A stretch of 49,586 nucleotides of DNA. Origin: Candidatus Altiarchaeales archaeon. GTDB taxonomy: Archaea > Altiarchaeota > Altiarchaeia > IMC4 > SCGC-AAA252-I15. Under the pieces are notes generated by a model. That model saw nothing but the letters and a program-made list of their open reading frames with translations, ran no database searches and was not told the origin of the DNA. The stretch spans positions 1 to 49,586 of the forward strand of contig WJJK01000045.1 of the NCBI GenBank assembly GCA_014729705.1, written 5' to 3'. Below, one piece after another: positions 9,779 through 49,586 of the stretch (positions within the stretch are counted from its first letter, which is position 1; each line of letters starts with the position of its first letter). The translations under genes were made by a program, and so were the position numbers.

Positions 9779-9779
9779 G

Positions 9780-30300: not shown

Positions 30301-32844
30301 GCCCTTGGCCGGGTTTACTACACCGGTTATGCAGACACTGGTTACGAAGTCGCCGGAATGACCGAAGTTACGGTAGATGATAGCGGTGCTATTTCAGATT
30401 CGTCGATGCCCGGTGTCTTCAACGTCCGGCTGAACGATAACGGTAGTGCTGCCGTAAATCCTCCTGTTGTTGTCTCCGTTTCTGGTAGTGGAGGTATGGG
30501 TGTTGCCGGCGGGATTACTGCCCAGTCAGCGAACATCGGAACCGGTACCTTCACCGAATCTCTGACCATCTCTGGTGTTGCTGTCGACATCGCAAGTGGA
30601 GACGTCACGGACTACGGAGCGACTGGAGATGGCGTAACAGACGATACAGCAGCCATCCAGGCCGCTATGGACGCAGGGGGCGTTATAGTTGTACCATCGG
30701 GTGTATATTCTATAAATCAGGTAGATGTTACTTCCAAGGTAGACGTACGCGCATCTTCAGGGGCCGTCTTCCGGCAGCGCAGCACTGGAGATGAGAACAT
30801 CGCTTGTATCCGGTTTACCACAGGCTCGGACGGCTCGACGTGGGACGGAGGACAGTTCGACGGTGACGCCAGTACCCATGCTTCCAGCTACACGGGCAGC
30901 ACCGAGACCAACAAGCGCGTGTGGACTGGCATTCGGGTGGACGGGGCACCCGCGAATCTCCGCTTCCGCAACATCCACATGTACGACTTCCTGATGAGCG
31001 GCTTCTGGCACCAGAACGCTAACCAGACAGTGTGGGAGAACATTCTTATCGAGCGGTGCGGGAAGGCATTTATTTGTCAGAGAAACGATAGCGGAAGACT
31101 TGCCAACATCGTCTGCCACGAGATTCAAAACCGTAATAAAGCCATCTTCCAACACGCGATTGAGATTCGCGATGCCACCAATCTCACCGTGCTCGACATC
31201 GTCGTCACCGACTTCCAGCCGGACAACGCTGGTGTGGAGCCCACTCCCGGTGCGATTGCGTTCGAGCGGATGCGAGGTATGACTGCAGTCGGCCTCTCCG
31301 CCGACGGGTTTTCCGGGTCGGGCAAAGCAGGCATCGGATTCATTATCGACACCCTCGAGAAATCGAGCGTGACCGGCTTGCTGTGCCGGGACGGTTACGA
31401 GTCGGCTGCAACGGTCAACACATGCTGGGATTCCGCCATCGACCACTTCCACTTTGATCTGGCCTACGAGGACACCATCGGAGGAGGTGCCGAGGGAATC
31501 CGGATTCGAGGAGGAGGGCTCTTCCCGGCTATCGGAGACGGCACTGTGTCTGAGAACGCGAGGGCCAACGAGGGATGTAGGAATTTGCGTCTGTCGAATG
31601 GTCTCGTTATGCGTGCCGTGGGGCAGGGCTACCTGGTGCAGTCAGGGTTTGTGCAGTTCGTCAACTGTCACGCTCTGGGAAACACGCTGCACGGGTTCCA
31701 AAGCAATGAGAACTTGACGGGTGTGGGGACTTTCTCTGGCGGCAGTGCCGTCCCAGTAACTAACGTAGATTTACTGGGATGTTCAGCCACTTATAATGGG
31801 CTTACAGGCTTCTTTGTAGAAGAAGGCGCAAGTATGCAAATCATCGGAGGTTCCTATTCCAATAATGGTAGTGACACCACCGGAGGAAACCAGAGAGCCG
31901 GGATTAGATTACAAAATGCCTCTAAAATTCGCATCGTGGACGCAGATCTGGGCGACACCCAGGACTGGGCGACTAAGAGCCCCGGAGCCTCGTTCGAGCC
32001 TGGCAGCACCACCAACAACCAATTTGATTTGAGTTTGGTAGACCCCAGCTTTGTGCAGGTTGGCCAGTATCTGGTGCTCAAGAATGCCGATGGTTCTGGA
32101 GACGTGACGGCTAAAGTAATAGATAAGCGCAGAGATGACATTACGGTGGAGACATCAAGTCCAGTAACTTTCTCTGCTACGGGCAACACTTCTGCCCTAA
32201 CAGGCACTATTTCTACCACCGGCGTAACGGTTAATGGGACATCGACCGCCTTTCTAACTGAATTAACCGGAAGGACTTATATTGTCAACGGCGGCAACTA
32301 TCGACGTGTGATTCGGGTTAACTCAGACACTAGTGCCGTCATCGAAGAGGCGTTTCCGTCCGACCTGTCCGGTGCCAGCGTCTCCAAGCTGGAGATTGAC
32401 GTGGACCCCTCTTCTAACAATCGCCAGCAATTTGGGATTAGGATGGAAACTGCTGCTTCGGGGATTTATGTGCGGGGTTTGTATGGGGAGGTTTCTAACA
32501 CTTTCTGGAACTTCGCTGCTACCGCAGACCAGGGACTTGAGGCTGGGTCGGAGGTGCTCGGAACTGTAAGGCAGGTAGCCTCCGCTTCTTCGATGTCTGT
32601 GCCTAAAATACAGAACGGTTTTTTCCGGGTTACTGGAACCAACTCAATACAAACTATCCCTGCCCATCCTGAAGGGTCTCAGATTACTCTGTTGTTTAAT
32701 TCTACTGCTGATGTTGAACATAATGCCGGTAACATTTTGCTCCAGGGTGCCTCAGACTGGACCACTATATCCACCAACGATACTCTCACGCTCATAAGCG
32801 ATGGTGTGAACTGGGTTGAGGTGGGACGTTCCGACAATTCTTAG
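27319..32844 (+). CDS. giant mosaic fibre/tailspike protein (repeat stalk, C1q-like domain, His-repeat segment, pectate-lyase-like beta-helix)
   Basis: TTG start. About 10 SG[HS]LQxQID repeats. DVTDYGATGDGVTDDTAAIQAAMDAGGVIVVPSGVYSI is the typical N-cap of right-handed beta-helix depolymerases. Confidence 0.8.
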   Translation: MPKPNALPTYSKDNVLYADEGLSDLTPVGVIISSGTLISGALTFGSLVGDIDTANGAFSETLTVSGIPVDISAGGGPGAGVSSLNSQQGAITLQGQGGTTITTVGQTITISGATGGGSNDHSALNNLDFASSGHTGFASEAALTTTSGHLQNQIDGIDDHPRYTDAEAVSGTEAARVTLSGHLQSEIDLNASAILQLDGEVGALDSELVTVSGHLQDQIDNLPASSGTAASVNALQGSDGITVISGSNVDTIQGFRPEFIAASGSLQTQIDSIDTGSSTGGKALVGSDGITVVSGSNQVDIQGFRGEFVSASGTLQSQIDSNSSATSINTSNIADNTSQILTTSGHLQNQIDSIQIDELEPAIVGQDGITVTSGTNTTLTGFRPEFVAASGSLQSQIDSLGASELDTAIVGSDGIAVVSGSNEVEIQGFRNEFVASSGSLQNQIDNLDDIYATDAELVSVSGHLQSQITGSSDLQSAYDAGDGIITTSSGKPAELDGTGELVAVTGTFTQGLTIGSTSVDIYENSITIDGDRVVVEPDFVSASGYLDSRITSMDPNGISFKGAIVSKTNNQNLPSGANTPVNFQSVQYDHGGWFDASQPTRFTVPSGVSRVVVFANVSLENSGATGKQQVKITRNDQFGQPGFPIAGHAQETSSSDDLYNVCTAPIEVTPGDYFEVQVFHNQGAGIDVFGTGNTWFGIAADRTGFEIPLVGAGNVTVVSGTDVITISGSGSGGGDLTDAIVGAGGNTVISGSNTVTVSGFRDEFVLASGSLQGQLDSHTGDATLHFTEASIDHTNIQNVGSNTHAQIDSHISDSTIHFTEGSIDHDNIQNNGSNSHAEIDTHLAALATSGTTNASNLSSHTGDSTIHFTEGSIDHGSISGLGDDDHTQYTRADGTRAFTGDQSFGSNNITDVDTLYATLISGSEDATLGDAGFEGDGVVIDGTLRRSVLKSSDIGSNRLILIHKHRHDTTFPPAEAFSRSNTDDNSHAAVTNGQALGRVYYTGYADTGYEVAGMTEVTVDDSGAISDSSMPGVFNVRLNDNGSAAVNPPVVVSVSGSGGMGVAGGITAQSANIGTGTFTESLTISGVAVDIASGDVTDYGATGDGVTDDTAAIQAAMDAGGVIVVPSGVYSINQVDVTSKVDVRASSGAVFRQRSTGDENIACIRFTTGSDGSTWDGGQFDGDASTHASSYTGSTETNKRVWTGIRVDGAPANLRFRNIHMYDFLMSGFWHQNANQTVWENILIERCGKAFICQRNDSGRLANIVCHEIQNRNKAIFQHAIEIRDATNLTVLDIVVTDFQPDNAGVEPTPGAIAFERMRGMTAVGLSADGFSGSGKAGIGFIIDTLEKSSVTGLLCRDGYESAATVNTCWDSAIDHFHFDLAYEDTIGGGAEGIRIRGGGLFPAIGDGTVSENARANEGCRNLRLSNGLVMRAVGQGYLVQSGFVQFVNCHALGNTLHGFQSNENLTGVGTFSGGSAVPVTNVDLLGCSATYNGLTGFFVEEGASMQIIGGSYSNNGSDTTGGNQRAGIRLQNASKIRIVDADLGDTQDWATKSPGASFEPGSTTNNQFDLSLVDPSFVQVGQYLVLKNADGSGDVTAKVIDKRRDDITVETSSPVTFSATGNTSALTGTISTTGVTVNGTSTAFLTELTGRTYIVNGGNYRRVIRVNSDTSAVIEEAFPSDLSGASVSKLEIDVDPSSNNRQQFGIRMETAASGIYVRGLYGEVSNTFWNFAATADQGLEAGSEVLGTVRQVASASSMSVPKIQNGFFRVTGTNSIQTIPAHPEGSQITLLFNSTADVEHNAGNILLQGASDWTTISTNDTLTLISDGVNWVEVGRSDNS

Positions 32845-34152: not shown

Positions 34153-35109
34153 ATGTCAGTCCTCAAGCCTATCATTGATAGCATTGTCAATGGTACTTTG
34201 ACGATTACTGCAACGTCACCCTCGGCCGTGGGGACGATGTTTGATAAGATTCAGATCTTTAGGGCTACTTCTGTAAATGGTCCCTTCAGTCTTATAGCCA
34301 CTATAGATTTTTCTTCTCCTGCAGCCTACTGTGATTTAACCAGTACTCCTAAACTTTATTACAAAGCTCAGTATTACAATAGTACCACTATGGTTTCCAG
34401 TACGTTTTCTGATGTGGCACAGGAAACTGGTGTATTCTCCGAGTATAGCGTACCGGAAAGCACGGCTACCTATCCGCCAGAGTTGGCTCTTTCTGACAAC
34501 GATAGGGAAATCGTTGAGTCTATAAGGATAACCGTAGGAGATAGCGGTCTGATAGAGCGGGATCTTTACGATTCTTCTGACCCGCAGTCGGCAGCTGCTT
34601 GCGCTGCTAATATAGACCCAGCTGGTTGTACTTGGGAGTTAACAGAATGGAAAGGTTGGCCACAAAAGGTAGTTCTTAATGGGGAAGAGAAGACCAACAT
34701 CAACGACCCTCAGGTACTTGGTTATCGCTACCTTGTTTTTAGTGGTTCTGGGCCGTGTATTACAGGCTCTTTAGACGTTTTCTATAACCACTTCCGCTTC
34801 TCCGATCGTGAGATTTTATTGGCTTACGATCGGGCCAGAAATCTTTTGATTACTTGTGGTTTGCCGGAATCTAAGGTTACGACAGAGATGCGTATAATGC
34901 AGGCTGCCATTCTTCTTCTTGAAGGAGAGATTAGGGAGCTGTCTCAAAATGCGTTCCGCATTGTGGATGGAGATACTACCTATGATAATAGTGCTACCAT
35001 TCGTTCCCGAACTACTGATTTGGAGGACCTCAAGAGAAAGATTGACAGACTGATTGAATGTGCTCGCTATGAAGCGGCGTACGACATCCAAGGTTGTAGG
35101 ATAGACTAA
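34153..35109 (+). CDS. hypothetical virion-module protein
   Basis: 318 aa, with an AAAGGAGGA SD. Confidence 0.5.
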   Translation: MSVLKPIIDSIVNGTLTITATSPSAVGTMFDKIQIFRATSVNGPFSLIATIDFSSPAAYCDLTSTPKLYYKAQYYNSTTMVSSTFSDVAQETGVFSEYSVPESTATYPPELALSDNDREIVESIRITVGDSGLIERDLYDSSDPQSAAACAANIDPAGCTWELTEWKGWPQKVVLNGEEKTNINDPQVLGYRYLVFSGSGPCITGSLDVFYNHFRFSDREILLAYDRARNLLITCGLPESKVTTEMRIMQAAILLLEGEIRELSQNAFRIVDGDTTYDNSATIRSRTTDLEDLKRKIDRLIECARYEAAYDIQGCRID

Positions 35110-36866
35110 TGCCCAAAAAACTGGTCACCAACAAAATGAAGAAGGACTATAAAAGGCTGATGTCTCAGCTTGTTAGAGATCTTTCCCAGGAGCTGGTAAT
35201 AGTTCAGGAAAGTCCTATGTTTGTAGATTGTCCTAACTGTTTTGAAGCAGGAACCCTTATAGAGACACCTTTTGGAATGAAGAAGATAGAAGACTTCCAA
35301 CCAGGGGATTATATTTTGGACGGCAATGCAGAGCCTCGACTTGTGGATAAAGTATTTCATAGACATACTGACGCATCTTTCACGTCCATTTTTACACACG
35401 GTAACAATGTGGGGTTGACAGCCACTTCCAATCACCACTTAATGGTACATGAAAACAGGGGCACAGCCTACCATCCCATTTTAGGTGGGTCGAAAGAAAA
35501 AGAGATAGGTAACATACAAAAAGGCGATATAGTTTCTAAAGCGATCAGAAAACTACCCCAAGAGCCTTTAGAAAAGCTATGGGTTGATTGGAAAACAAAT
35601 ACACATGGACCTAAAAAAGTTTTGCCAGAAATCTTGGAAGTTACCGATGATTTCTTATTTGCTGTGGGTTTGTATTTGTCCGAAGGCGTTACAAGCAAAA
35701 GCCGAATAGTAAGTTACTGTCTTAATGACTTGGAAGAAGAAATAGGTCATAAAGTTTGTGCGTATTGGAAATCGGTTGCAGAATGTAACTACACGATGTG
35801 TACTAGAGGAGGGGGTAGGAATAGGATTTTTGAGATATATAGTTCTTATTTGGCTGATCTATTAGATAGTTGGTGTGGACACGGCGCGCAAAATAAAAAA
35901 ATACCCACCTCCTTGTATTACAGGTTGAATGCCCGTCAAACTTTAGTGTTGTTGTTTGGTTTGTTTGTCGGCGCTGGTCATTATGAAAAACAATATGATA
36001 GTGTGGTATTTAGTACTATTTCTAAATCGTTGGCATATCAAGTTTACAATCTACTTCTATCTTGTGGATTCGGTGCCAGTATACTTTCTCAGCCTAGTAA
36101 GGTGGGATCGGACGGCATTTTTAGACAAGAATCGTTCGTAGTTAGATATTGGACAAATAAAGATAAGGCACAAAGAGGGACAATAAGAACTGAGGATAGA
36201 ATCTATCAGGTAGTAAAATCTGTAGCGCACAGTCATAAATCAGTACCTGTTTGGAATCTAGAGGTTCAAACCGAACACAGTTATATTGCAGATGGCTTTA
36301 GTGTACAGAACTGCATATGGGATTCTGTTAATAAAAAATCCTCTAATGTCTTTGATGGTTCTTTTACGTCCGCAACTACTATTTTTTCTGGTACCAGTGA
36401 GGAGCGGGTTATAAATCCTATATCTTTCACTGTTGGACGTTGTCCTGTTTGTATAGGTGAAGGTCAGATTTTTACCAACAAAGAAATCTGCATTCCTGCT
36501 ATGATAAATTTTTTCTCTGGAACCGGCATGCGCCGTGGTTTATTTATGAGCACTGCTGCAGGTAAGGAAGGGATGAACTTGGTGGTGGTTAAGACTCTCG
36601 CCTGCCACTATGAACTTTTACAGAACAATGAAACTTTTTTTATTCATAACAATGTTAAATGTGTGAAGTTCAAGCCTCCTTTCCTAAGAGGGTTGGGTGG
36701 AGAAGAGACTGTTTGTGAGACTATTCTTCAGACTGCCGACGAAGGACAAAGGACTTCTGGTAAGTTTGGTGGTGGAGACAAGTTAAGTCGAGATGATGAT
36801 CCAAGAAAGAGGATAAGAGGTCCTTCTGATATTCTGGATCAGAGAGGTAAACTGAGAGGTAGGTAA
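35109..36866 (+). CDS. virion-module zinc-knuckle protein precursor containing a 358-aa intein
   Basis: Layout is ...FVDCPN | CFEAGTLIE...GFSVQN | CIWDS.... The 227-aa extein carries CPNC and CPVC pairs. Confidence 0.75.
   Translation: MPKKLVTNKMKKDYKRLMSQLVRDLSQELVIVQESPMFVDCPNCFEAGTLIETPFGMKKIEDFQPGDYILDGNAEPRLVDKVFHRHTDASFTSIFTHGNNVGLTATSNHHLMVHENRGTAYHPILGGSKEKEIGNIQKGDIVSKAIRKLPQEPLEKLWVDWKTNTHGPKKVLPEILEVTDDFLFAVGLYLSEGVTSKSRIVSYCLNDLEEEIGHKVCAYWKSVAECNYTMCTRGGGRNRIFEIYSSYLADLLDSWCGHGAQNKKIPTSLYYRLNARQTLVLLFGLFVGAGHYEKQYDSVVFSTISKSLAYQVYNLLLSCGFGASILSQPSKVGSDGIFRQESFVVRYWTNKDKAQRGTIRTEDRIYQVVKSVAHSHKSVPVWNLEVQTEHSYIADGFSVQNCIWDSVNKKSSNVFDGSFTSATTIFSGTSEERVINPISFTVGRCPVCIGEGQIFTNKEICIPAMINFFSGTGMRRGLFMSTAAGKEGMNLVVVKTLACHYELLQNNETFFIHNNVKCVKFKPPFLRGLGGEETVCETILQTADEGQRTSGKFGGGDKLSRDDDPRKRIRGPSDILDQRGKLRGR
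35238..36311 (+). mobile_element. intein with a (possibly degenerate) LAGLIDADG domain
   Basis: Starts with Cys1 (CFEAGTLI), has a TSNH block B, motifs FLFAVGLYLSEG and LLFGLFVGAGH, ends VWNLEVQTEHSYIADGFSVQN and is followed by a +1 Cys. Confidence 0.8.
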
Positions 36867-38489: not shown

Positions 38490-40367
38490 ATGGCAAGACG
38501 TAACCGAATTATCTACCCAAGCAATTCGGTTTGGGCAAACGGTAATGTGCTGTATCGGGTACAGACCTTCGGTTCAACCACCGCGTTTAACACCGAAGAC
38601 GTCTTCGAACTTGGTCAGCTAAAGGTTATTGACGTTGTGGATGACTCCCCAACGGTTACCGTAACCATTGAAACTGGCGAGTTCGGCTCTCTATCCAACC
38701 TTTACCATCTGTCTAACCTTGAGTTTGATAGCGTTATTTCCAATGACGCTGTTGCTGCTTCTGGTCACTTGACTGTGGTAAGTGGACTTGGAGATGATGC
38801 AGTTAACATTGCACACTACCACGGTGTAGCCCTGACTGACTTCGGTCTTTCTGGATGCGAGACTGGTTCGGCTGTTGAGATTTGGGCGCCCATTCAGAAT
38901 GAGTGCTCTCTCGGTACCGACAATGACGAGATTGATCAGACTATGTATCTGCCACGAGTGTTCGTCAACTCTATTGAGTGGACCTACTCCGCAGGTGCTA
39001 ACGCGGCTGAAAACTTCGGTGCAGAAACCGATGCTAAGTTCTGGTTTACAAATGATGGTAGGTTTATCTCTAATGAGGAGTTCGTATACACTTCTTCCCC
39101 ACCAGAAACTGACACCAACACAGGTGTAACTGGTGGTACCGGATTTAAGGTTGACGCTTCCGAGACCTCGGTTTACCTTGGTCTGGATCAGAATGCTGCT
39201 ACTGCCGAGCTTGTTTCTACTCGCTCTACCGGTCAGCTTGCGTTCTTACGCTTTGACGTGTTCGGTACTCCTTCAGTAAGGTACTACAACCGATCTACCA
39301 AGACTTCTTTTGAGGTCCCGGTAGAGGCTGGTACCGCTGCTAAGGCAGGTACTTACGTATACGACAGTACTGACAACCAGCTCTATGAGCCAACTGACTT
39401 GACCACCAACAACGAGCTTCTTGGTGAGGCTAAGGCAGATGGCGACATTCTGTTCGTTGTCTACGCTGCTAATCACTACGCCCGCCGATGGGAAGATCTT
39501 GATTCCACCACTCAGACTGACCGTGGTGGTGCTAAGAGCACTTCCAAGATGGCTACGCGTCGTGACGCAGAGTACTTTGCTCCGATTGAGATTGATCCAG
39601 GTGATAAGCCCGAAGACGTCGGCGCTGTTCGTCAGGGTCAGATCGAGATCTACCTCGTTGATAAGGACGTTCTACCGCCCGACTTCAATCTCGACAATGA
39701 GCTTGCTCTTAGAGTAACTTCCGTAACTATTACGGCAGATCTTACTCGTGAGCCGCTCTTTGAGCTCTCGCACCTTCGACCTTACGACCGATCGTTGACT
39801 TTCCCGATTCCATTCACAGTAACTGTTGAGACAACCGCATCCGATCTTACCGAGTATGCAACCTTCGCTTCCAAGAAGCAGGGAGTTGCAATCGATTTGA
39901 CCACGGATGAGGTTTCCATCTACGACTTCATGTCCGCTAATGAAAGACTCGACCTTGTCGTGCTCATTTATCAGCAGACAGATGAGGAAGCAGGTGGTGT
40001 AGGTTCTCAGCGAAGAGTGGTAACTCGAGAGATGGTTGGTGATGAATACTATCAGAGAGGACAGAGGTTCATCTATTACGATGGCACCACTTCCGATCCT
40101 GATACTGGTATCAACTACGGTACTAGCATCCCGGTTTCTCCAACAAAGGATAACACTCACCGCGAGCGACCTCTTAAGACCGTTATTGCGAAGGATCTGC
40201 GAATCACTGACGAAGCGTACAACCTCACCCTTGGTGAGAACGCTACTCAGACATACGGTTTCCGAGGTACCAACCGAGTCTTCGCCGTTCTTGGTGAAGT
40301 CGATACTGGTGACCTTGTTGCCGATCCTGGATTCCAGGTCAATCCGGACGCTCCACGAATCTTCTAA
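38490..40367 (+). CDS. major tail structural protein (sheath-like by size and position; family not verified)
   Basis: 625 aa. It has its own 125-nt upstream gap, a strong AAGGAGGA SD, and is followed by two tandem hairpins. Confidence 0.45.
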   Translation: MARRNRIIYPSNSVWANGNVLYRVQTFGSTTAFNTEDVFELGQLKVIDVVDDSPTVTVTIETGEFGSLSNLYHLSNLEFDSVISNDAVAASGHLTVVSGLGDDAVNIAHYHGVALTDFGLSGCETGSAVEIWAPIQNECSLGTDNDEIDQTMYLPRVFVNSIEWTYSAGANAAENFGAETDAKFWFTNDGRFISNEEFVYTSSPPETDTNTGVTGGTGFKVDASETSVYLGLDQNAATAELVSTRSTGQLAFLRFDVFGTPSVRYYNRSTKTSFEVPVEAGTAAKAGTYVYDSTDNQLYEPTDLTTNNELLGEAKADGDILFVVYAANHYARRWEDLDSTTQTDRGGAKSTSKMATRRDAEYFAPIEIDPGDKPEDVGAVRQGQIEIYLVDKDVLPPDFNLDNELALRVTSVTITADLTREPLFELSHLRPYDRSLTFPIPFTVTVETTASDLTEYATFASKKQGVAIDLTTDEVSIYDFMSANERLDLVVLIYQQTDEEAGGVGSQRRVVTREMVGDEYYQRGQRFIYYDGTTSDPDTGINYGTSIPVSPTKDNTHRERPLKTVIAKDLRITDEAYNLTLGENATQTYGFRGTNRVFAVLGEVDTGDLVADPGFQVNPDAPRIF

Positions 40368-40380
40368 AGGTCGATTTTCT

Positions 40381-40432
40381 GCTGTCCCGGGTCCCGCCCG
40401 GGGCAGCAACAAGTTCCTCCGTCTTTCGGAGG
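40381..40432 (+). terminator. two tandem GC-rich hairpins
   Basis: GCTGTCCCGGG tcccg CCCGGGGCAGC (11 bp including one G-U pair), then CCTCCG tcttt CGGAGG. Confidence 0.5.
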
Positions 40433-40469
40433 GGTAAGGAATGAGTTTAAGGGAAAGGAGATTATTCTC

Positions 40470-40748
40470 ATGGTTTCCAGGGAAGAAAAGTCCCTGGGTA
40501 AATCCCAGGAAAAGCTCAAGAGAGATGTGGAGAGAAGCGTCCTCAAGAGCGCTGATGAGATCCTGAACATTGCTGAAGTCGCAATAGCTGATTCCCAGCG
40601 GTACAGGGCTTTTAGATCTAAGGTTCTTCGTTCAGTCAATGACGCTGTTCGGGAAGTTAAGAAGAACCTTGATCTTCATTACAAGGTGGTGTACGTGCCT
40701 ACTAACGAAGACGTTATAGAGGTACAGCAGCCAAGAGTTAGAAGTTAG
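40470..40748 (+). CDS. hypothetical small helical protein
   Basis: 92 aa, with an AAAGGAG SD. Confidence 0.45.
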   Translation: MVSREEKSLGKSQEKLKRDVERSVLKSADEILNIAEVAIADSQRYRAFRSKVLRSVNDAVREVKKNLDLHYKVVYVPTNEDVIEVQQPRVRS

Positions 40749-40769
40749 GCAAAGGATAAGGAGACATAA

Positions 40770-41639
40770 ATGGCAACCGCAAAGGACGTCAAGGACGTGC
40801 TGGATACACGTCGCGAGTTTACTCTTGAAAACCCTGACGGAGAAACTGAAAGTTATTTTATTGCCCAGCCGAGCGCTGCGGACATAAGAAAAGCAGATTG
40901 GCAATACTCCAAGGTTTATAACCAGGCTATTGTTGATGGTTTTTTAACTCAATCCCAGATGTTGGAAGTTCTTAAGGACAAGGGTATTCTTTCCGAGGAG
41001 TACACCGAGCAGCTTGAGAGCGTGAGAATCAATCTGGCAGCAGAACTTTTTAAGCTTGAAAATCTCGGAAATGAAACCCCCGATGATGACCGTGAAGCTG
41101 TTGCTATGGAAGTGGCGCGCTTAAGAGATCAGCTCTTCCGGCTAAATCAGCAAGTTAACGGTCCTATGGGGAATACCTGTGAGAACTTAGCCGAAGATGC
41201 CCGAACCGAGTTTCTAACCAGTAGGGTAGTTCAGAAGCAAGATGGATCTCGTCTGTGGGAAACCTTTGATGATTATCAGAACGAAGAAAACTCCGGTTTA
41301 TCTGTTAAGGCTCGTTTTGAAGTTATGCTTTGGATGCAGGGACTTGAAAGCAACTTCATGGAAAATACTCCAGAGCAATCTACTCTCAGGGAAGTAGCCC
41401 AAAAGAGATTAGACAACGCCCTTGAAGAGGCCAGAAAATCTGCTTTGGAACAGTCTGAGAAAGAAGAAAAGGAAAAGCGGTCCGGAGAAGATTCCGAGAA
41501 AACCAAGGCTGAGAAGAAGGCTCCACGAAAGAAGAAGACTCCTAAAAAGAAGGCTTCCTCCTCCAAGAAAGAGGAGAGTTCTCCTGCTCCCAAGAGACGA
41601 AGAGGTCGTCCTCGAAAGGATGAGAAGAAGGAAGAATAA
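40770..41639 (+). CDS. chaperone-slot protein A with a Lys-rich tail and AT-hook-like RRGRPRK
   Basis: 289 aa and a paralogue of the next gene (both share W[EK]TFDD[YF]xNE). Tail reads KKAPRKKKTPKKK...KRRRGRPRKDEKK. Confidence 0.5.
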   Translation: MATAKDVKDVLDTRREFTLENPDGETESYFIAQPSAADIRKADWQYSKVYNQAIVDGFLTQSQMLEVLKDKGILSEEYTEQLESVRINLAAELFKLENLGNETPDDDREAVAMEVARLRDQLFRLNQQVNGPMGNTCENLAEDARTEFLTSRVVQKQDGSRLWETFDDYQNEENSGLSVKARFEVMLWMQGLESNFMENTPEQSTLREVAQKRLDNALEEARKSALEQSEKEEKEKRSGEDSEKTKAEKKAPRKKKTPKKKASSSKKEESSPAPKRRRGRPRKDEKKEE

Positions 41640-42781
41640 TGTCTGAAGAGGGGACTTCTGGGGAGAAGATAAGTCTTTCTTTTCAAGAAGTGGAATCTCT
41701 ACTGGATTCTGTTCTTAATAACCAAAGACTCCAGCAAATAGACTTACCTGATGGCTCTCCGAGATTTGTTGTTTTTTGTTTTCCGACTGGCCCAGAACTT
41801 TTGGCTGCTCGCTATACGAGGGACAAGACTTTGGCGGAGGCGGCAGCCGAGGGTTTGCCCACCATAGAAGAAATGGATAGGCAGATACAAGAGAGGGGTT
41901 TACTTGAAGACGTAGACCAGAGTATAAAGGATTTGGAAGAACGTCTTGAAGGACAAAGGGCCATTCTTAACAAGACACAAATACCGGGGCGTAGATCGGC
42001 CGTAGAAGAAGTTATTAGCAAGATACAGAGTGATCTTTATGGCCTTAGATCTAAGAAAGAGTCCTATTACTATTTAACCCAGGAAAGAAAAGCCGATGAA
42101 GTTTCTTACAGATACTTAGCCTGGGCATCTACTTATTCTATTGAGGGTGGTAAGTATTGGAAGACCTTTGACGATTTTGAGAATGAGACAGACATTTATT
42201 TTCAAACTGAAGTTCTTGGGCATTTTGCTAAATTTAACTCAGGTCTTCCTGCCAAAAAGGTCCGTTACCTAGCCCGACATAATCTTTGGCGCATACGTTT
42301 CGTAGCAGCCACCAAAACGGGGGCGGGACCGTCCCTGTTTTGTCGTAGATTTAATGATTTGACTCCAGACCAACTTGGCCTCCTATACTGGAGTAACTAT
42401 TATCAATCCATTTACGAAATGCTTCCGGATGATCAACCTGATCAAGAGATCATCGAGGACGACGAGAAGCTTGATAAGTACATGGAGGATTATTTCAAGC
42501 AAAAGGAGGCGGAGAGGAAAGAAGGAAAGGCTGAAAAGAGGAGCGATGTCTCTGGACATCCTAAGGGTTATAAGCCCAAGCTTAACGCTTGGGAGCGAGG
42601 AGAGGAGCTAATCATTACCCCTTCCCACCCAGAATACCAAAGTCTGGCATACACCGAGAAAAGAATAAACGCCCCTGAGGGCACTTCTGAGGTAGAAGTT
42701 ATTTCTCCTAATAGTAGGAGGGCCAGGAACAGAAGAGCCCAGGCGCGAAGCCAGTCCAGTATGCGTGGAAGGAAACGATAA
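41639..42781 (+). CDS. chaperone-slot protein B (paralogue of A) with an Arg-rich tail
   Basis: 380 aa, TAATG-coupled. Shares the PDG...G(L/F)(P/L)T and WKTFDDFENE blocks. Tail reads RRARNRRAQARSQSSMRGRKR. Confidence 0.5.
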   Translation: MSEEGTSGEKISLSFQEVESLLDSVLNNQRLQQIDLPDGSPRFVVFCFPTGPELLAARYTRDKTLAEAAAEGLPTIEEMDRQIQERGLLEDVDQSIKDLEERLEGQRAILNKTQIPGRRSAVEEVISKIQSDLYGLRSKKESYYYLTQERKADEVSYRYLAWASTYSIEGGKYWKTFDDFENETDIYFQTEVLGHFAKFNSGLPAKKVRYLARHNLWRIRFVAATKTGAGPSLFCRRFNDLTPDQLGLLYWSNYYQSIYEMLPDDQPDQEIIEDDEKLDKYMEDYFKQKEAERKEGKAEKRSDVSGHPKGYKPKLNAWERGEELIITPSHPEYQSLAYTEKRINAPEGTSEVEVISPNSRRARNRRAQARSQSSMRGRKR

Positions 42782-42804
42782 TCCTACGGCGGAGGAAAAG
42801 GTAG

Positions 42805-45800
42805 TTGGTAGAAGAGAGCTTCAAGCTTAATCTAAATATAGAACTTGATGAAAGTGGCCTTGCGGGACTTCAAAAGCAGATAGAAAGAAGTGTAAATAAA
42901 GCTTTCTCTGATGCTTTTAGAAAGGTCAAGTTGCCTACGCCCGGCGCTACAGGAGGTGGCGCTGGTCCTACTCCGGCAACTGCACGAAGTGCCCGTGAGG
43001 CTATTTCTGTATCTGGGCAAGATCTTGGAAAGAGTGTCCAGCAAGCTTTGAGAGGCGAGCTACGCGGATTCGAAGCTGCTGCTAAACGTATGGAACAGGC
43101 GGTAGACAGATTGGCGCGCGTCATGGGAGGAGGACGCGGAGGCGGAGCTGCTTCTGGAGGCCCTTCCAGAAGACAACAACAGGTTGAGGAAGTTTTTAGG
43201 GCCCGCGTTGGTCGTATATCCGAGATGCGAGGGAGGCAAAGAACTGCCCGAGAAGCTGGAACTCCTGCCGGAGAACGAGAAGCCGAGCGCCTTGAGGTGG
43301 AGATAGCCAGAGAAAAGAAAAAGGCTTTTAGAACAGCACAGAGACGCCAGCGCCTCCAGGAACAGTCTGCTAAGGCGGCCGAAAGAACTGCCAAGTCTGA
43401 GGAAGACCTAGCCCGCTCCACAGAGAAGCTGGCGGCTGCACGTCGGAGAGAGGCTGCTGCTACCGAAAGCAGAGGGCGTCAAGGTGCCGGTCCTTCCGGC
43501 CCTGCCCCTACACGTGGAAGAGAACAGGTAGCTTCCCGGCAAGTAGGTGCTTCCAATCAACAGACAGGTGCTAATATAGATGTCACCCGACGTTCGGGTT
43601 CTCAAAGGACCGCCGGATCCACTGGAGAAATTGTAACCGATGCCCCTCGTATTCGCGATAACAGAGTAGGTACTGTACAGGATAGGCCTCAGTTTAGAAA
43701 GGAAGCACAAGAAAGAGAGAGGGCCAGGGCCGGAGCCGGTGCGGAATATATAAAGAGTGCTCAGGCTACCTCCGAACGGGTTGCTGCAAGCATAGGAAAG
43801 CTTGAAGCGGCTATTAGAACTATGCCTCAGTTTAGGGATGTTGATCTTTCCAAGGCTCTTGGGCTGCCAGGCAAGGAGTCCCTTGGTGTTGGTAGAGGAG
43901 CAGCTGCCACCGTTAAGCTTCCTTCTGGAGAAGAGAGGGTTATACGCCAGGCAGTTAATATTCTATCAGATGAGATGGGCAAAGTTTCTGTTGAGGCTGG
44001 GGACGTAATCTCCAAGCGTATTGACAAATTGCTTTCCAGTGAAGCTATGAGTAAGATAGGTAAGACAGCCCGTTTCCGACCTGAGCGCGCCGAAAATATG
44101 CTCAGGGCGGAAATAGGCAAGATATTTGAAGCTCCTAAGCTTGAATCTACTAAGGTAATGGGCGGTTTTGCTACAGCCGGACAGTCCCATATGACTTTCA
44201 AGCCTACAGAAGAACAGCGCAAAAGAATAGCATCCAAGGCCCCTGGGGCAGAGCAGATAGCAGAGGCTATGGTAGTTCTGCAGGAAATGTCCAGGGAATC
44301 CGAATCCTTCAAAAAGGCAGGGCTTGAGGTTGTACATGTTTTGGGTATGGCGGAGCAGGACGCTGCTGCAATGGCAGATTCTATCGAAGCTTTTGCTAAG
44401 GGAGCTTCTGATAGTATAGAGGGAATTGTTCAGACAAGAAATCTGGCGGCTATGGGTGTTGGTGGTGCCGGAACTATGAGACAAGCACGTTCCTTCCTTG
44501 TTACCCAAACACAAGAGATGGTAGGGGGAGAGGAACCCAAGATTAAGGGAATAGGAGAAGAAGCAGCATACGCTGGTGATATTTTTGGAAAGAGAGCGGT
44601 AAAGCATCTCAAAACTGCTGTTGTTTCTGCGGACCTTATGCCCGAGCTTAAGGAAGATCAGTTCCTACTGGACAAAAAAGCAGCAGAACAGATGGGTATG
44701 ATAGAGAAAAAGAGTAAGCTTGTTAAAGATGTTGGTGAGGACATAGTTCCTGGTATGAAGTTGCAACATAAGCAGGTACTGGGGGCTGATGTAAAGGGTA
44801 GAGCTGTAGAGTTTGACCTTAAAGGGGCTGAGGCCGAGGTTAAGAGAGTAGAAAAAGTCATAAAGAATGGTGTTGAGGCTTGGAAGATTCATTATGAAGA
44901 GCTCAACCAGATGGTTACGGGTGGTAAGATGACCACCCGCGCCGGCGGTAAGGGTATAGTACGAGTTGAGGAGGATATTGCCGGTAAATACGGTCTTCCT
45001 AAGGGAACTCAAGTGGCTATGTCGGCTGAAGGTATGGCCAAGAGAGGCGATTTAAGGAGCATGATTGAGATGCATGCTTCTAACATTTCTGAGGCTACTA
45101 CTAAGTCAGGACAAGAAGTGGCTGACATGATAGTAGATAGAATGAAGCACGGTTCTGATTATATGGGAGAAACCATTGATCAGGCCATAAAGAACGTCGC
45201 GTCTGAGTTAGGTATTAAGGGCTATACTGGTGCAGAGGTTATGCGGGAAGGTCCTCTGGCTAAGGGCAAGGGAGGCGAAGCGGCAGTTATGACCGGTGAG
45301 CTGGCTTGGATGCGCCTGGCAAAGGAGGGACAGAGAGGTCCGGCCCCTGTGGACCCTCGTTTCTTGGATAAGCCCGCCCAACAGGCCATGGAGCAGCGCG
45401 CCGAAACTGTTGCCCAGTCCAAAGCCATGCAGAGTGAGATGTCAAAGGTTATAGAAAGTAACTACGAGTACGTAGCTACCTTGCAGTCTATTGCTGGCGC
45501 TACGGACGAGGTCACAGAAGGTTTGAAGGAAGTCAAGCCGGAGAGATTCAAAGGACTCACTGGCGGAATGATGGATCCTTCTACACTTAAGGGAACCCTC
45601 TTAGATCCTGATCTTGCCGAGCCCCTAAAGGTTATGTTGCCCAAGAGGGGTGGCGGTGAGGAGGCTATGCGCTTGCCCTCTATGGGAAGGGGTCTGGGTA
45701 AGCGTGATTATTTTGAGACTGAACTAGGTCAGGTGGGTGCCAGTGACATAACTAAACTTTATGATAAAATAATCCAGCAAGCCAAACAAATAAGAGTGGC

Positions 45801-48800
45801 TACTGGACAAGTAGACATTACCGAGGATGCTGAGGCTTATGGAGAGGCAGCTCAAATAACTTCCAGGGCCATGAAGGACCAGATACAAACGATCTATAAG
45901 TTGGGTTCTAAAACTGAAGAAGGTAAGGCGGCGATGAAAGAGTTCATCGATTCCTTTATGCCTTTAATAAAGCAGCTTGAAGGACCTGCAGGTATTGAGT
46001 ATCAGAAGGTAAAGAAGACAGGAGAAAGGGAAACAGTTGCTTATCAAGGTACCGCAGAAGAGTACGTACAGAGCCGTAAAACTCTTGAACAAAAGATGTT
46101 CGGTATTCAGGACTTGCTGTCTGAAAGATCGGCCCGCCGGGCCAAAGTAAGTCCTCAGAGCGCTTGGGGTAGGCAGGGTTATGTCGCAACCGAAAACGTA
46201 CCTCGCGCAGGTGCTATGTTTGATCCTAAAAATGCAGAAGTACTTAGAAAGTCTATGGATCTTTTGGGAGTATCCTTAGAGGAGGATGCGGAGCATGTTG
46301 ACAAGCTTCATGACAGGTTAGAGAGGCTTAAGTCAATACTTGTAGAGACTCTGTCCATGGCAGGTGTAGGAACCGCGGGCGGACGCCCTGCTTCCGAGTC
46401 TTTGCGCCCCTACGCTCAGGCCATGGGGGGCGGTATAGCTGAGGCACCTATGGGGGTCGCTACAGAGTTTAGAACAGATATATCTGCTTCTCTTGCGAAG
46501 GCTAAAGAAAGATTAGAGCAGCTGGCTGATTCTGGTAAGAACGTAGATCAGGCCCTTGCGGCGGTGGAGAGGATTTCTGCCCTCCAGACTGATGTGGAAG
46601 GTTTGCCTCGCGACGCTGTTATGTTGAGTGAGACAGATTATGAAAATCTCAAGCAGTCTATTATGAAGCGGCAGCGAATAGGCGAAGCTGAAGCCACCAA
46701 GAGAATGGAAAGAGGTGTTTCTCTGCGCTACCCAGTGACTGGTGGTCAGAGTATGCAGGCAGTTAAGATTCTAAAAGATACAATGGGTAAGCTACCGGAA
46801 GGTAAGATTGGCGTTGCAGGACCTCCTGCCGGAGAACCTGAGGACATTGAAAAGGTCACAGGTCAACTTAGTGAGTTTAGAGCTTCCCTTGCCAAGGTTA
46901 TAGAGGATAATAAGGGTTTCGGTGCTGAAGCGGATCAAGCACGCTCTGAAATAGCCGAACTGGATCCAGTTATAGAGGGACTTCGACAGTCTTTCCTTAG
47001 CGCTACTCAGAATCTTGATTTCGACGGAGACAAGATTGCTGTATTTGGAGCGCTGACAGAGGAGGCATCGAAGTCTCTTCGTACGTTCACTGAAGTTGCT
47101 ATGAGAGGAGGAATGTCCTTTGAAAACATAATGAGTACTATTTTGACTGCTTCCAAGGGCAAGCCTGGCGGAGGAATGGGAGGTGTCGAAGAATACGCTC
47201 AGTTGTTCGGCCAGGTTGCTAAGGGCAGGACTGGTAAGTACCGTCAAGCAGTTATGGCTCCTGACACTACAGAGACTACGCGTTTTGAGTCCACAGCCCA
47301 CACAGCCGGAAAGTTGTCCGTTAGTTTGCTCACTGATGCCTTCAATAAGCTTCAGATGTCTATTCTAGGGGGAGCTGAGCAGACCGGAGACGCGATGTCT
47401 ACTGCGGTAGAGCGTATAATGTTGTTTATTAACAAATCCCTGGCACAAAAGCACGGCGGTGGGGGAGCCGGCGGGGCTGACCCTATGGAATTTATAGAGT
47501 CCTTCCGTAGAGGACCTGAAGGTCTTAAGGAAATCTTTTCCGGTATGGATGAGATGGGAGATGATATCTACGGAGAGCTCGGTAAGTTCAACAAAGAATA
47601 TCGTGAGCGTATGTACAACATGCTCATCGCTCAACCAAGAGATACTGTTCAAGAGTTAGCTAAGCAAGCTGGGGTTTTGGAGAGCGAAGCGGACCTAACT
47701 CCGGAAACTTTTATACCTGTTATAAAGGACATGGTTAATGAGCTGGACCTAAAGGGACAGTTTAAGCGTATGTGGGAAATGCTTGAAGACAACATGAAGC
47801 AATCTCTTATGAAGGAGGGTATGTCTGCGGAAGAAGTATCTGCCAAGATGAGGGATATGCTTACAAAGCCTACCAAACAGACTGGTAAACCGGCAGGACT
47901 GGATCTAAATAGACTGATGAAGAACATGTTCCCGGAGTACAGGGCTACCCGAAAGGTAGGGGTAAGGGAGATGGAGGGAGAATCTCCTATGGGTAAAGCC
48001 CAACAAGTACTTAAGATGTTGGGGCTTCATGTGGCCGAGAGAATAGAAGAGACAGAGGAATACTTTGATGAAGACGTAATACAAGGGGCAGCAGTACAAC
48101 TTATATCTAAGATTCATTCTTTCTTAGAGTCTGTTTCTGATCAGTTTGAGATATCTACCACTGCTGAGTTTGCCCAGAGACTCGGAAGAACTCCCGAACA
48201 AGCTGCTGGAGTAAGAGGTCAGTACATTAGAGGAAAGGGCGATGAGCCTGGTAAGATAATGCTTTCCGAGGAGAAAATTTTCAAGCCCCTTATAGAGGCC
48301 ATTGCTACCTTGGATAGGGTCGCTAAGGGAGAGATACCTCCAACAGTTGAAGCTTTCCAAAGCCTTGGTGAGGCTTTGTCTAGGTTTGCTTCTACCATGT
48401 CCCACGAAGGTATCCATAAGGCCGCAGACCAGTTCCCTGAAGTTATACAAAATCTGGTCCGACGTATAACTTCCTCAAGTGGTGATCTAAGCCAGCACTC
48501 GGGAGCTATTTATGAAGCCTTAAGTAAGCTTTCCAATGTGGCTAAACTTAGAGGTAAGTTTGAGCAGGTTTCCAAGGCCCAGAAGGGAGGTGCTACTGAG
48601 TTTGCAGGGATGCCTATAAAGGAGGCCAAGCAGGAGATAGGTCGTCGTTTGGCCAGAGTTTCTACAGAGGAGTTAGTCGCTCACCTGGCCGATCGCCAGA
48701 AGTGGCAAAAGGTATTTGGTCACCTTCCAGAAACTGTACAGCAAGCAGCCAGGGATGCATTTGAAGAACTCTCCCAGTCTGCACCTGACATTGTAAAGCC

Positions 48801-49586
48801 TGTTCAGAATTGGTCAAATGAAATTCTATCTTCTCTTGTTGAAATAATGACTTCTACTTTCCAAGGACAAGGTGTGGGGGCTGCCAGAGAGGCTGCCCAG
48901 CAGAGAAGAGATGCCTTGGAGTCGGGGGAGCCTTACCCCGGTAGAGAAAGATTCCATCAAATGCGCGAAGTTTTGGGTAAGGGAGAAGAAACCCTGGCAT
49001 ATGGTAGAAGAACCCATGGACTTGCTCCTTTTCAGAAAGCAGAAGGAAGAGTTGGTATAGGTGGTCGCCTCGAAATAGGAGGGGAGCAGGTAGTAGGTCA
49101 GATAGGTGCCCAGGTACGCAATCTTTTGGAGAGCGCTCTTAGAGGAGGAGCATTTGATGATCCTGGTGCTGCAGCTGAGTTGGAGAAAGATTTTAAAGCC
49201 GCTGCCCGTCAGTACTATGAGGCTTTGAAGGGCCTTGGTAGGGATCAGTTTAGCGGAAACGCTTGGAAGGAATACAACAAGGTTCTTCTCGAGTTCCAGG
49301 CAGCTGAGGCGCAGTCTCTTATAAACAAAGCGCGCCAGATGGAAGAGCAGATTTCAGAAATGAGAAAGGCAGGTCAGACTGACATGCCTGAGTTCCGCGA
49401 TCTGCTGGATAGATTTAATGAAACGGTTCAAGAACTTTTCCGTTCCTACGAGAAGAACATTAAGTTAGGAGGCAAAGGAAGAGGTACTGCCTCCGGACTG
49501 GCCGTTACCCCGGACCAGCTAATCTCTGAACCGGCATTGGAGATGGGTGTTAAGCCTACGGGCGCACAATATCAGCAAGTAATGCA
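42805..49586 (+). CDS. giant virion-module protein (>2,260 aa, 3'-open) containing RpoB-like and RpoC-like double-psi beta-barrel motifs: candidate single-chain RNA polymerase
   Basis: Hand translation of frame 1 is open from TTG 42805 to the window end, with GGAGG at 42791-42795 and an in-frame TAG at 42802-42804. GGKMTTRAGGKGIV lies at 44920-44961, RYPVTGGQSMQAV at 46726-46764 and NLDFDGDKIAVF at 47011-47046. The ORF is absent from the supplied track. Confidence 0.8.
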   Translation, partial: MVEESFKLNLNIELDESGLAGLQKQIERSVNKAFSDAFRKVKLPTPGATGGGAGPTPATARSAREAISVSGQDLGKSVQQALRGELRGFEAAAKRMEQAVDRLARVMGGGRGGGAASGGPSRRQQQVEEVFRARVGRISEMRGRQRTAREAGTPAGEREAERLEVEIAREKKKAFRTAQRRQRLQEQSAKAAERTAKSEEDLARSTEKLAAARRREAAATESRGRQGAGPSGPAPTRGREQVASRQVGASNQQTGANIDVTRRSGSQRTAGSTGEIVTDAPRIRDNRVGTVQDRPQFRKEAQERERARAGAGAEYIKSAQATSERVAASIGKLEAAIRTMPQFRDVDLSKALGLPGKESLGVGRGAAATVKLPSGEERVIRQAVNILSDEMGKVSVEAGDVISKRIDKLLSSEAMSKIGKTARFRPERAENMLRAEIGKIFEAPKLESTKVMGGFATAGQSHMTFKPTEEQRKRIASKAPGAEQIAEAMVVLQEMSRESESFKKAGLEVVHVLGMAEQDAAAMADSIEAFAKGASDSIEGIVQTRNLAAMGVGGAGTMRQARSFLVTQTQEMVGGEEPKIKGIGEEAAYAGDIFGKRAVKHLKTAVVSADLMPELKEDQFLLDKKAAEQMGMIEKKSKLVKDVGEDIVPGMKLQHKQVLGADVKGRAVEFDLKGAEAEVKRVEKVIKNGVEAWKIHYEELNQMVTGGKMTTRAGGKGIVRVEEDIAGKYGLPKGTQVAMSAEGMAKRGDLRSMIEMHASNISEATTKSGQEVADMIVDRMKHGSDYMGETIDQAIKNVASELGIKGYTGAEVMREGPLAKGKGGEAAVMTGELAWMRLAKEGQRGPAPVDPRFLDKPAQQAMEQRAETVAQSKAMQSEMSKVIESNYEYVATLQSIAGATDEVTEGLKEVKPERFKGLTGGMMDPSTLKGTLLDPDLAEPLKVMLPKRGGGEEAMRLPSMGRGLGKRDYFETELGQVGASDITKLYDKIIQQAKQIRVATGQVDITEDAEAYGEAAQITSRAMKDQIQTIYKLGSKTEEGKAAMKEFIDSFMPLIKQLEGPAGIEYQKVKKTGERETVAYQGTAEEYVQSRKTLEQKMFGIQDLLSERSARRAKVSPQSAWGRQGYVATENVPRAGAMFDPKNAEVLRKSMDLLGVSLEEDAEHVDKLHDRLERLKSILVETLSMAGVGTAGGRPASESLRPYAQAMGGGIAEAPMGVATEFRTDISASLAKAKERLEQLADSGKNVDQALAAVERISALQTDVEGLPRDAVMLSETDYENLKQSIMKRQRIGEAEATKRMERGVSLRYPVTGGQSMQAVKILKDTMGKLPEGKIGVAGPPAGEPEDIEKVTGQLSEFRASLAKVIEDNKGFGAEADQARSEIAELDPVIEGLRQSFLSATQNLDFDGDKIAVFGALTEEASKSLRTFTEVAMRGGMSFENIMSTILTASKGKPGGGMGGVEEYAQLFGQVAKGRTGKYRQAVMAPDTTETTRFESTAHTAGKLSVSLLTDAFNKLQMSILGGAEQTGDAMSTAVERIMLFINKSLAQKHGGGGAGGADPMEFIESFRRGPEGLKEIFSGMDEMGDDIYGELGKFNKEYRERMYNMLIAQPRDTVQELAKQAGVLESEADLTPETFIPVIKDMVNELDLKGQFKRMWEMLEDNMKQSLMKEGMSAEEVSAKMRDMLTKPTKQTGKPAGLDLNRLMKNMFPEYRATRKVGVREMEGESPMGKAQQVLKMLGLHVAERIEETEEYFDEDVIQGAAVQLISKIHSFLESVSDQFEISTTAEFAQRLGRTPEQAAGVRGQYIRGKGDEPGKIMLSEEKIFKPLIEAIATLDRVAKGEIPPTVEAFQSLGEALSRFASTMSHEGIHKAADQFPEVIQNLVRRITSSSGDLSQHSGAIYEALSKLSNVAKLRGKFEQVSKAQKGGATEFAGMPIKEAKQEIGRRLARVSTEELVAHLADRQKWQKVFGHLPETVQQAARDAFEELSQSAPDIVKPVQNWSNEILSSLVEIMTSTFQGQGVGAAREAAQQRRDALESGEPYPGRERFHQMREVLGKGEETLAYGRRTHGLAPFQKAEGRVGIGGRLEIGGEQVVGQIGAQVRNLLESALRGGAFDDPGAAAELEKDFKAAARQYYEALKGLGRDQFSGNAWKEYNKVLLEFQAAEAQSLINKARQMEEQISEMRKAGQTDMPEFRDLLDRFNETVQELFRSYEKNIKLGGKGRGTASGLAVTPDQLISEPALEMGVKPTGAQYQQVM

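Follow-up and report, generated by a model that had tools for sequence, protein, structure and literature searches.

The DNA analysed here (the window) is the whole of contig WJJK01000045.1, a stretch of 49,586 nucleotides (nt) that belongs to a tailed phage, and its right-hand end is filled by one giant open reading frame (ORF), which starts at position 42805 on the forward strand and is still open at the last base. We have studied this ORF, its relatives and its gene neighbourhood, and the explanation that best accounts for the data overall, one we hold to be likely, is that it encodes a tape-measure protein carrying an N-terminal two-barrel RNA polymerase and, behind it, a module with an HExxH motif. 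The features of the locus are collected in Table 1.

The ORF at 42805 is a real protein-coding gene. Its machine translation comprises 2,260 complete codons, up to position 49584, plus two bases, with zero in-frame stops, and gives a product that starts (L/M)VEESFKLNLNIELDESGLAGLQKQIERSV and ends KPTGAQYQQVM. The other five frames of the stretch 42805-49586 contain 35-203 stops each. With the base composition of the window, 5.7% of random codons should be stops, which sets the probability of 2,260 stop-free codons at 10^-57.6; the next-longest open stretches in the window are 1,841 and 1,052 codons. A preliminary description of this DNA had proposed a single continuous ORF here from codons read by hand, and had named in-frame stops between 42805 and 49584 as the observation that would speak against it. 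None is seen in the machine translation, and both of its ends agree with the text given there. The suggestion that the ORF is missing from the supplied ORF track for want of a stop codon inside the window was likewise correct, because the ORF lister does not report frames left open at the end of the sequence, and the short antisense ORFs listed across 42805-49586 are shadows of the giant gene. The same protein, with the same start and length and with 100% identity and coverage, is deposited at NCBI as MBD3260378.1, a partial hypothetical protein of a Candidatus Altiarchaeales metagenome-assembled genome (MAG).

The start region consists of an in-frame TAG (42802-42804) followed directly by TTG (42805-42807), with GGAGG 9 nt upstream, as first described. 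This start is conserved: in 20 related loci the orthologous gene begins with TTG or GTG, never ATG, the motif GGAGG(A)AA(A/C)GG is kept about 9 nt 5' of it, and the N-terminal peptide is kept as well. A non-ATG start behind a strong, conserved GGAGGAAAAGG Shine-Dalgarno sequence was noted in loci L001 and L003-L024 as well as at window position 42805, and such TTG or GTG starts may serve to keep down the translation of a giant protein needed in low copy number.

Table 1. Features of the giant gene and of its phage neighbours in the window. Residue numbers refer to the product of the giant ORF; family 1 is the family to which this protein belongs.
Feature	Coordinates	Strand	Basis
Giant ORF, 3'-open, tape-measure N-terminal half with RNA polymerase (proposed)	42805..49586	+	Collinear with P0003
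Shine-Dalgarno sequence GGAGG	42791..42795	+	9 nt 5' of TTG start
TTG start and N-terminal peptide (L/V)VEExFK(I/L)x(I/L)x(L/V)E...	42805..42909	+	Conserved, all family-1 loci
Ala/Arg/Gly/Glu-rich low-complexity stretch, poorly conserved (aa 41-330)	42925..43794	+	Composition
Polymerase core, aa 532-1713 (beta-like barrel, long connector, beta'-like barrel, helices)	44398..47943	+	Alignments, hhalign, AlphaFold
Beta-type double-psi barrel signature, T705-G-G-K708-M-T-T-R-A-G-G-K716-G	44917..44955	+	Conservation, hhalign
R-x-P strand of beta'-like barrel, L-R1308-Y-P1310-V-T-G-G-Q-S	46723..46752	+	Conservation, predicted beta-strand
Metal-binding loop of beta'-like barrel, N-L-D1405-F-D1407-G-D1409	47011..47031	+	Conservation
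Helices after metal loop (K1503, D1511, N1514 ... I1542, N1543, L1546, K1549-H-G1551)	47302..47469	+	Conservation, predicted long helices
HExxH module, aa 1757-2156, sheet-plus-helix domain	48073..49272	+	Alignment, AlphaFold
HExxH motif, H1867-E-G-I-H1871	48403..48417	+	Invariant
Glu pair E1955-E1956, on a helix ~85 residues after HExxH, candidate third metal ligand	48667..48672	+	Conservation
Four-gene block (625, 92, 289 and 380 aa) directly upstream of the giant gene	38490..42781	+	Conserved synteny
Large terminase	13553-16624	+	PHROG matches
Portal	16625-18511		
Major head protein	26166-27233		

Polymerase core and HExxH module

The window protein itself has nothing significant in Pfam, PHROGs, NCBIfam, the PDB sequences or 50,697 phage genomes; its matches to Dps/ferritin and anticodon-binding proteins, with expectation values (E) of 0.002-0.3, are noise. 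Two short motifs were used as leads. The signature from T705 to K716 resembles the E. coli beta-subunit motif GDKMAGRHGNKG (K1065/K1073), with the same 8-residue spacing of the lysines, and N-L-D1405-F-D-G-D1409 resembles NADFDGD, the metal loop of beta'. Both lie within amino acids (aa) about 530-1,715, the region that we assign to a single-chain two-barrel RNA polymerase.

Conservation within the family supports both barrels. In the 19 full-length members, which share 28-43% identity, the residues T705, G706, K708, G714 and K716 are invariant or nearly so, and the two-lysine motif TGxKx5GxKG of a beta-type barrel is therefore conserved. The same degree of conservation is seen for R1308, P1310, T1312, G1313, N1403, D1405, D1407, G1408 and D1409, and S1316 in the R-x-P strand is near-invariant. 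Every member covering the region, metagenome loci included, has the metal-loop aspartates (the loop reads NLDHDGD in L008, the 104-kb contig SDBV01000079.1). With R1308-Y-P1310 followed after 94 residues by D1405, the protein has an [RK]xP element and a DxDxD element 20-100 residues apart, the mark of a beta'-type barrel, and it fits the filter [RK]xPx{20,100}DxDxD used for such enzymes by Chaban et al. (2024, Nat Commun 15:317, PMC10770324).

The link to known polymerase families was provided by a group of stand-alone proteins of ~1,000-1,160 aa (P0038, P0040, P0043, P0047; loci L032-L036), which the family profile also matched (E 2.6e-7 to 4.7e-4) and which, among detectable relatives, come nearest in sequence to the polymerase module. 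Three of the four that were scanned (P0038, P0040 and P0043) pass the Pfam threshold for Rpb2_6 (PF00562), and two of these, P0040 and P0043, also pass that for Rpb1_2, in the order Rpb2_6 then Rpb1_2 on one chain; P0047 stays below the Pfam threshold. When the first barrel region was compared with these polymerases by hhalign, the match reached 99.2% (E 2.8e-19, 371 columns), and the beta-type signature was paired with K(I/F)(T/S)N(M/L)HGNKG of the PF00562-positive proteins. For the C-terminal half, a first hhalign comparison with 12 sequences was weak (50%, E 1.6e-4), but the match became convincing once 30 sequences had been merged into one profile (96%, E 3.8e-9), over 150 columns that extend from the metal loop and take in a QKHG motif common to both. 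The stand-alone proteins share with the window protein the order of the barrels, the K...GNKG and NLDFDGD signatures and the QKHG motif, but they come without the tape-measure part and without the HExxH module, and their connector is shorter. They sit on contigs of up to 124 kb and have no match in 50,697 sequenced phage genomes.

Structure prediction points in the same direction. An AlphaFold2 model of aa 532-1,713, calculated without templates from a 12-sequence alignment, has a mean predicted local distance difference test score (pLDDT) of 68 and a predicted template-modelling score (pTM) of 0.42. Foldseek found 393 PDB matches to this model at E <= 0.001, and each of the 50 best is the second-largest subunit of an RNA polymerase (Pol I, II or III, archaeal, vaccinia or African swine fever virus), with E ~1e-8; from the viral structure library came beta subunits of giant viruses, poxviruses and jumbo phages. 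At the second signature the predicted order is R-x-P strand, two strands, helical hairpin, metal loop and strand, the pattern that would be anticipated for a beta'-type barrel carrying an insertion. The helices at aa 1,489-1,549 are long and conserved, and are aligned with the stand-alone polymerases through the shared QKHG; in the model they are candidates for the bridge-helix and trigger-loop region. Between K716 and R1308 lies a connector of ~590 residues, much of it predicted as folded helices and strands (pLDDT 70-88). In size it is, by our estimate, similar to the beta C-terminus plus the beta' N-terminus of the cellular enzymes.

The multisubunit beta (Rpb2) and beta' (Rpb1) chains are thus the best structural matches for the first barrel and have the same catalytic signatures. 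They differ from the window protein in that here both barrels are on one chain with no other subunits, that most peripheral domains are absent or replaced, and that the identity is only 12-16%. [quoted passage not shown] From these data, homology of the module to RNA polymerases is close to certain, and judging from its sequence it is probably catalytically active as well.

Some 150 residues past the polymerase core lies the HExxH motif, whose two histidines and glutamate are invariant in 19 of 19 members and in the further metagenome loci that reach it. In the family alignment E1955 and E1956 are also invariant or near-invariant. The AlphaFold model of aa 1,757-2,156 (pLDDT 83.4, pTM 0.64) has a three-stranded sheet followed by helices, with the HExxH on a long predicted helix (residues 92-120 of the module model) and the Glu pair on a later one (182-206). 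The layout of this model is reminiscent of a minimal gluzincin, and E1955/E1956 are a candidate for the third metal ligand. Pfam gave no significant family for the module (best Tox-MPTase2, E 0.086, in 3 of 16 members), and a comparison with the PDB gave no sequence match and a best Foldseek E of 0.33. It is thus a confidently folding domain unlike any solved structure; since neither a zincin fold nor a zincin profile was recovered, we do not claim it for any peptidase family. If the module does act as a protease, it might release the polymerase, process the tape measure or attack the cell envelope.

Full-length relatives and the tape-measure part

A word-indexed search of 5.8 billion proteins returned a single relative of the window protein, P0002 (3,769 aa, 36% identity), and its BLASTP alignment begins only at aa 235 of the window protein and is gapped within the low-complexity stretch (aa 41-330). 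A profile search (HMMER) of 1.84 billion cluster representatives matched 47 proteins, about 20 of which are full-length giants of 4,000-5,300 aa that cover all 1,186 profile columns, and a metagenome scan contributed 33 further loci. The full-length relatives span 3,769-5,285 aa and are metagenomic, many of them from deep-sea sediment; the assemblies SDBT, SDBU and SDBV, the source of many loci, are deep-sea sediment metagenomes (Backstrom et al. 2019, PMC6401483). Scans of the IMG/VR and GTDB genomes with a few peptide patterns found no relatives, probably because so few patterns were used.

The closest relative, P0003, is a protein of 4,653 aa whose residues 1-2,301 align with residues 1-2,260 of the window protein at 53% identity. 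From this alignment, ~2,350 residues (~7 kb) are missing beyond the window, and the window ORF covers the N-terminal half of a chain that should measure about 4,000-5,000 aa. The missing half can be read in the relatives: the phage minor tail or tape-measure domain PF10145 of Pfam is found at aa 2,370-2,561 in P0002 (E 2e-25) and at aa 2,577-2,772 in P0003 (E 1.5e-23), with scores well above the Pfam threshold in both. The Pfam scan found no PF10145 in the 2,260 residues of the window, where the domain would begin ~300 residues further on. The full-length relatives that were examined have, with one exception, a hydrophobic, membrane-type segment at aa ~2,500-3,000; the window part has none. 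The full-length orthologues therefore carry an N-terminal polymerase and a C-terminal tape measure in one polypeptide, and the window copy is collinear with them. Their C-terminal region is presumably the length ruler, and it is highly probable, on the strength of these sequence comparisons, that the fusion is present in this phage too.

A second giant family was also found (family 2), represented by P0033 (5,013 aa) and loci L026-L031 (at least 4,800-5,800 aa). It is homologous to family 1 over the polymerase (hhalign 100%, E 9e-46, 898 columns), has the same upstream gene block and a long C-terminal part with a hydrophobic segment, but differs in its low identity (~18%), in having the DxDGD further in (aa 1,526-2,450), in its different N-terminus and in the lack of an HExxH. 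Since polymerase and gene block are shared by the two families, the fusion must be old and widespread within one broad phage lineage.

Full-text literature searches returned one paper on a polymerase-tape-measure fusion, that of Chaban et al. on gp96 of Thermus phage P23-45 (PMC10770324). According to this work gp96 has 5,002 aa, with a minimal active fragment at 327-1,124 and DFDGD at 779-783; it forms a flat enzyme without a clamp, in which the connector is disordered and 66 residues long, and was placed in the phage/plasmid/QDE-1 clade. Its polymerase is active and occurs in virions within the full-length protein; early in infection the polymerase binds the phage DNA across the pre-early genes, which include the gene for a second, non-virion polymerase.

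The window protein and gp96 are alike in their giant size (~3,800-5,300 aa in the present family), in the probable tape-measure gene position, in the N-terminal single-chain two-barrel polymerase with a beta-like before a beta'-like barrel and a DFDGD loop, in a C-terminal tape-measure part with membrane segments (here seen in the relatives) and in having a metallopeptidase-type element (a putative one here) somewhere in the protein. They differ in the position of the DFDGD (1405 here, 779 in gp96) and in the connector, which is ~590 residues long here and predicted to be folded, in contrast to the 66 disordered residues of gp96. The nearest relatives of the window protein are beta/beta'-like and pass Pfam Rpb2/Rpb1, whereas gp96 groups with the phage/plasmid/QDE-1 enzymes. 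An invariant HExxH module follows directly after the polymerase here, and the sequences come from environmental metagenomes, sediment among them, where gp96 comes from an isolated thermophile phage. The N-terminus of gp96 matches PHROG 23188 with E = 0, whereas the window protein has no PHROG match. Between the stand-alone polymerases and the second barrel of gp96 there is a weak link (89%, E 2.4e-6), as expected from a common core.

In the BFVD structure library, A0A8S5SD80_1 (Siphoviridae sp. ctnpt50, from a gut metagenome, annotated "minor tail protein") aligned with 1,166 columns of the polymerase model at E 4.5e-6. Going by this model-based match, it may be another tape-measure-fused polymerase under a generic name.

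Gene neighbourhood

The giant gene lies downstream of the terminase, portal and major head protein genes, right behind the syntenic four-gene block. The latter has the same order in every family-1 locus, with 43-84% identity, and also in the family-2 loci, with 29-54%; its members presumably encode tail proteins or assembly chaperones. Conservation within the block is highest for the gene at 38490-40367 (forward strand, 625 aa), with 70-84% identity in family 1 and ~40% in family 2. Two further members, at 40770-41639 and 41639-42781 (both forward), are weak paralogues of one another (18-22% identity, E ~3e-4 via the L001 orthologues); kept in all loci, they might be tail assembly chaperones or tube paralogues.

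Among sequenced phages, the sole match of the major head protein is to Bacillus phage G, at 24% identity. The contig was deposited in a Candidatus Altiarchaeales MAG, but its terminase, portal, major head protein and tail genes are those of a phage. Its archaeal label thus stems from metagenome binning and not from gene content, and would be an artefact of that binning or else a clue to the host.

Several neighbouring ORFs have features of their own; all are on the forward strand except that for the HNH endonuclease coordinates alone are given. The large terminase has 1,023 aa, of which aa 480-929 give the terminase match and aa 60-490 match helicase/endonuclease PHROGs, an unusual fusion or insertion. 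After the portal gene comes an 878-aa ORF (18528-21164) in which DUF6582 occurs twice (96-nt repeat, positions 19479 and 19770) and which also matches chitin-binding peritrophin-A. In the ORF that follows the major head protein (27319-32844, 1,841 aa), a pectate-lyase-like domain lies at aa 1,096-1,134, and there are six or more internal repeats (families D1, D2, D4) with a spacing of 140-250 nt. Its product is probably a depolymerase or fibre protein, an odd one to meet between the head and tail genes. The 585-aa ORF at 35109-36866 has Hint, intein-splicing and LAGLIDADG matches, and its orthologues in eight other loci match over ~185 aa, so that it is probably a small structural protein with an intein of ~400 aa. 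Further to the left are a nucleotide-metabolism cluster (8093-10382) with thymidylate synthase (E 3e-125), dihydrofolate reductase and deoxynucleoside monophosphate (dNMP) kinase, an HNH endonuclease at 2499-3155, and the first ORF of the window (3-1061), which has collagen-like Gly-X-Y repeats (family D6, CTCAAGGACCCCAAGG). Rfam and transfer RNA scans of the window were empty.

Alternatives and proposed role

By analogy with gp96, the tail would incorporate a few copies of the giant protein and, on infection, release the protein into the envelope of the host. The phage genes that enter first would then be transcribed by its polymerase part, independently of the host enzyme. Delivery from the virion together with such early transcription appears reasonably likely. 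A number of observations weigh against the tape-measure polymerase proposed here, and should be kept in mind. The presence of the fusion in this phage would follow from orthologues with the same gene neighbourhood, as the window ends before the tape-measure part. Similarity to gp96 was absent for either half by PHROGs, tblastn, blastp, PDB profile search and hhalign (0.4-1.5%). The confidence of the polymerase model is only moderate, with the metal loop itself at pLDDT below 50, and the template-modelling scores of the Foldseek matches are low (0.14-0.18), because solely the barrel region (~350 columns) aligns. If the model is right, the long folded connector would make this enzyme bulkier than that of gp96, and its passage down the tail tube harder to picture. 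The four upstream genes remained unnamed by PHROGs, Pfam, NCBIfam and the PDB, where sheath, tube and chaperones were sought. In the window there is no repeated promoter-like intergenic motif, the repeats found being solely inside coding regions, and none of its ORFs of 150 aa or more has a second DxDGD motif; a second polymerase gene is thus absent from these 49.6 kb of an incomplete genome.

How far do these points favour other explanations? That the open frame is an accident or an assembly artefact and no gene has a vanishingly small chance of being right: its absence from the ORF track is the single observation in favour, to be set against a chance probability of ~1e-58, the 47 homologues in a library of 1.8 billion proteins, the 33 metagenome loci and the conserved start. 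It is also quite improbable that the giant protein of this phage is no tape measure at all, being instead a polymerase stored in the capsid and ejected from it, like phi14:2 gp66 or that of N4, with the tape-measure part absent. The window does end ahead of any tape-measure domain, and Chaban et al. point out that in crAss-like and N4-like phages, too, virion polymerases are joined to large proteins whose function is unknown. However, the window protein matches from end to end, at 53% identity, a P0003 chain that runs on into PF10145; the six family members scanned or on record (P0002, P0003) and every full-length locus share the long architecture, and the upstream genes are syntenic in all loci.

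The nature of the enzyme can be questioned as well. The polymerase-like region could be a degenerate relic, mere bulk or an assembly scaffold that performs no transcription, an idea that the low model confidence of the metal loop and the lack of a promoter motif in the window would suit, as would a family very divergent from any tested enzyme, whose activity is a predicted one. A relic, however, is expected to lose its catalytic residues, and here the three aspartates, both lysines and the R-x-P stay fixed even though identity falls to 28-43% in family 1 and ~18% for family 2, so that we regard this explanation as unlikely. Another substrate is conceivable too, since QDE-1 and the archaeal PolD also have a two-barrel core and the substrate cannot be read from the sequence; the module would then be a QDE-1-like RNA-dependent RNA polymerase or a PolD-like DNA polymerase or primase. 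This we consider very improbable, in that the top 50 structural matches are all subunits of DNA-dependent RNA polymerases, the nearest sequence relatives pass Pfam Rpb2_6 and Rpb1_2, and the genome of the phage is DNA, with a terminase to package it. The loop N-x-D-F-D-G-D is, moreover, the beta' form of the motif.

Returning to the tape-measure protein with its own RNA polymerase, we note that the window protein represents a recently discovered kind in a variant form, divergent in sequence and extended by a conserved module, and establishes no new principle. In databases, genes of this family go under "hypothetical protein", as in the archaeal MAG here, or "minor tail protein", and ORF callers that discard open-ended frames lose such genes at contig ends. 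With only gp96 and its close Thermus relatives studied so far, the fusion could pass for an oddity of thermophile phages. The same architecture is now seen in a large, diverse and uncultivated lineage (47 cluster representatives, 33 metagenome loci and two deeply split families), whose polymerase module is closer to cellular beta/beta' than to gp96 and has kept the large connector.

A bolder possibility, which we regard as doubtful at present, is that the fusion arose at least twice, the sediment lineage having joined a large-connector beta/beta'-like polymerase of an origin unrelated to gp96 to its tape measure and added a new-fold HExxH protease that frees the polymerase or opens the envelope once the protein has been ejected. 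If true, this would make the fusion a recurrent and widespread phage route to a host-enzyme-free start of transcription, with an archaeal host, as the MAG label would have it, as the extreme version.

Taken together, the present results suggest that the polymerase-tape-measure principle is widespread, and maybe of more than one origin. They bear on how often phages bring their own first-round transcription into the cell, on how a bulky enzyme is stored in and passed through a tail, and on whether polymerase-tape-measure fusions have evolved more than once.

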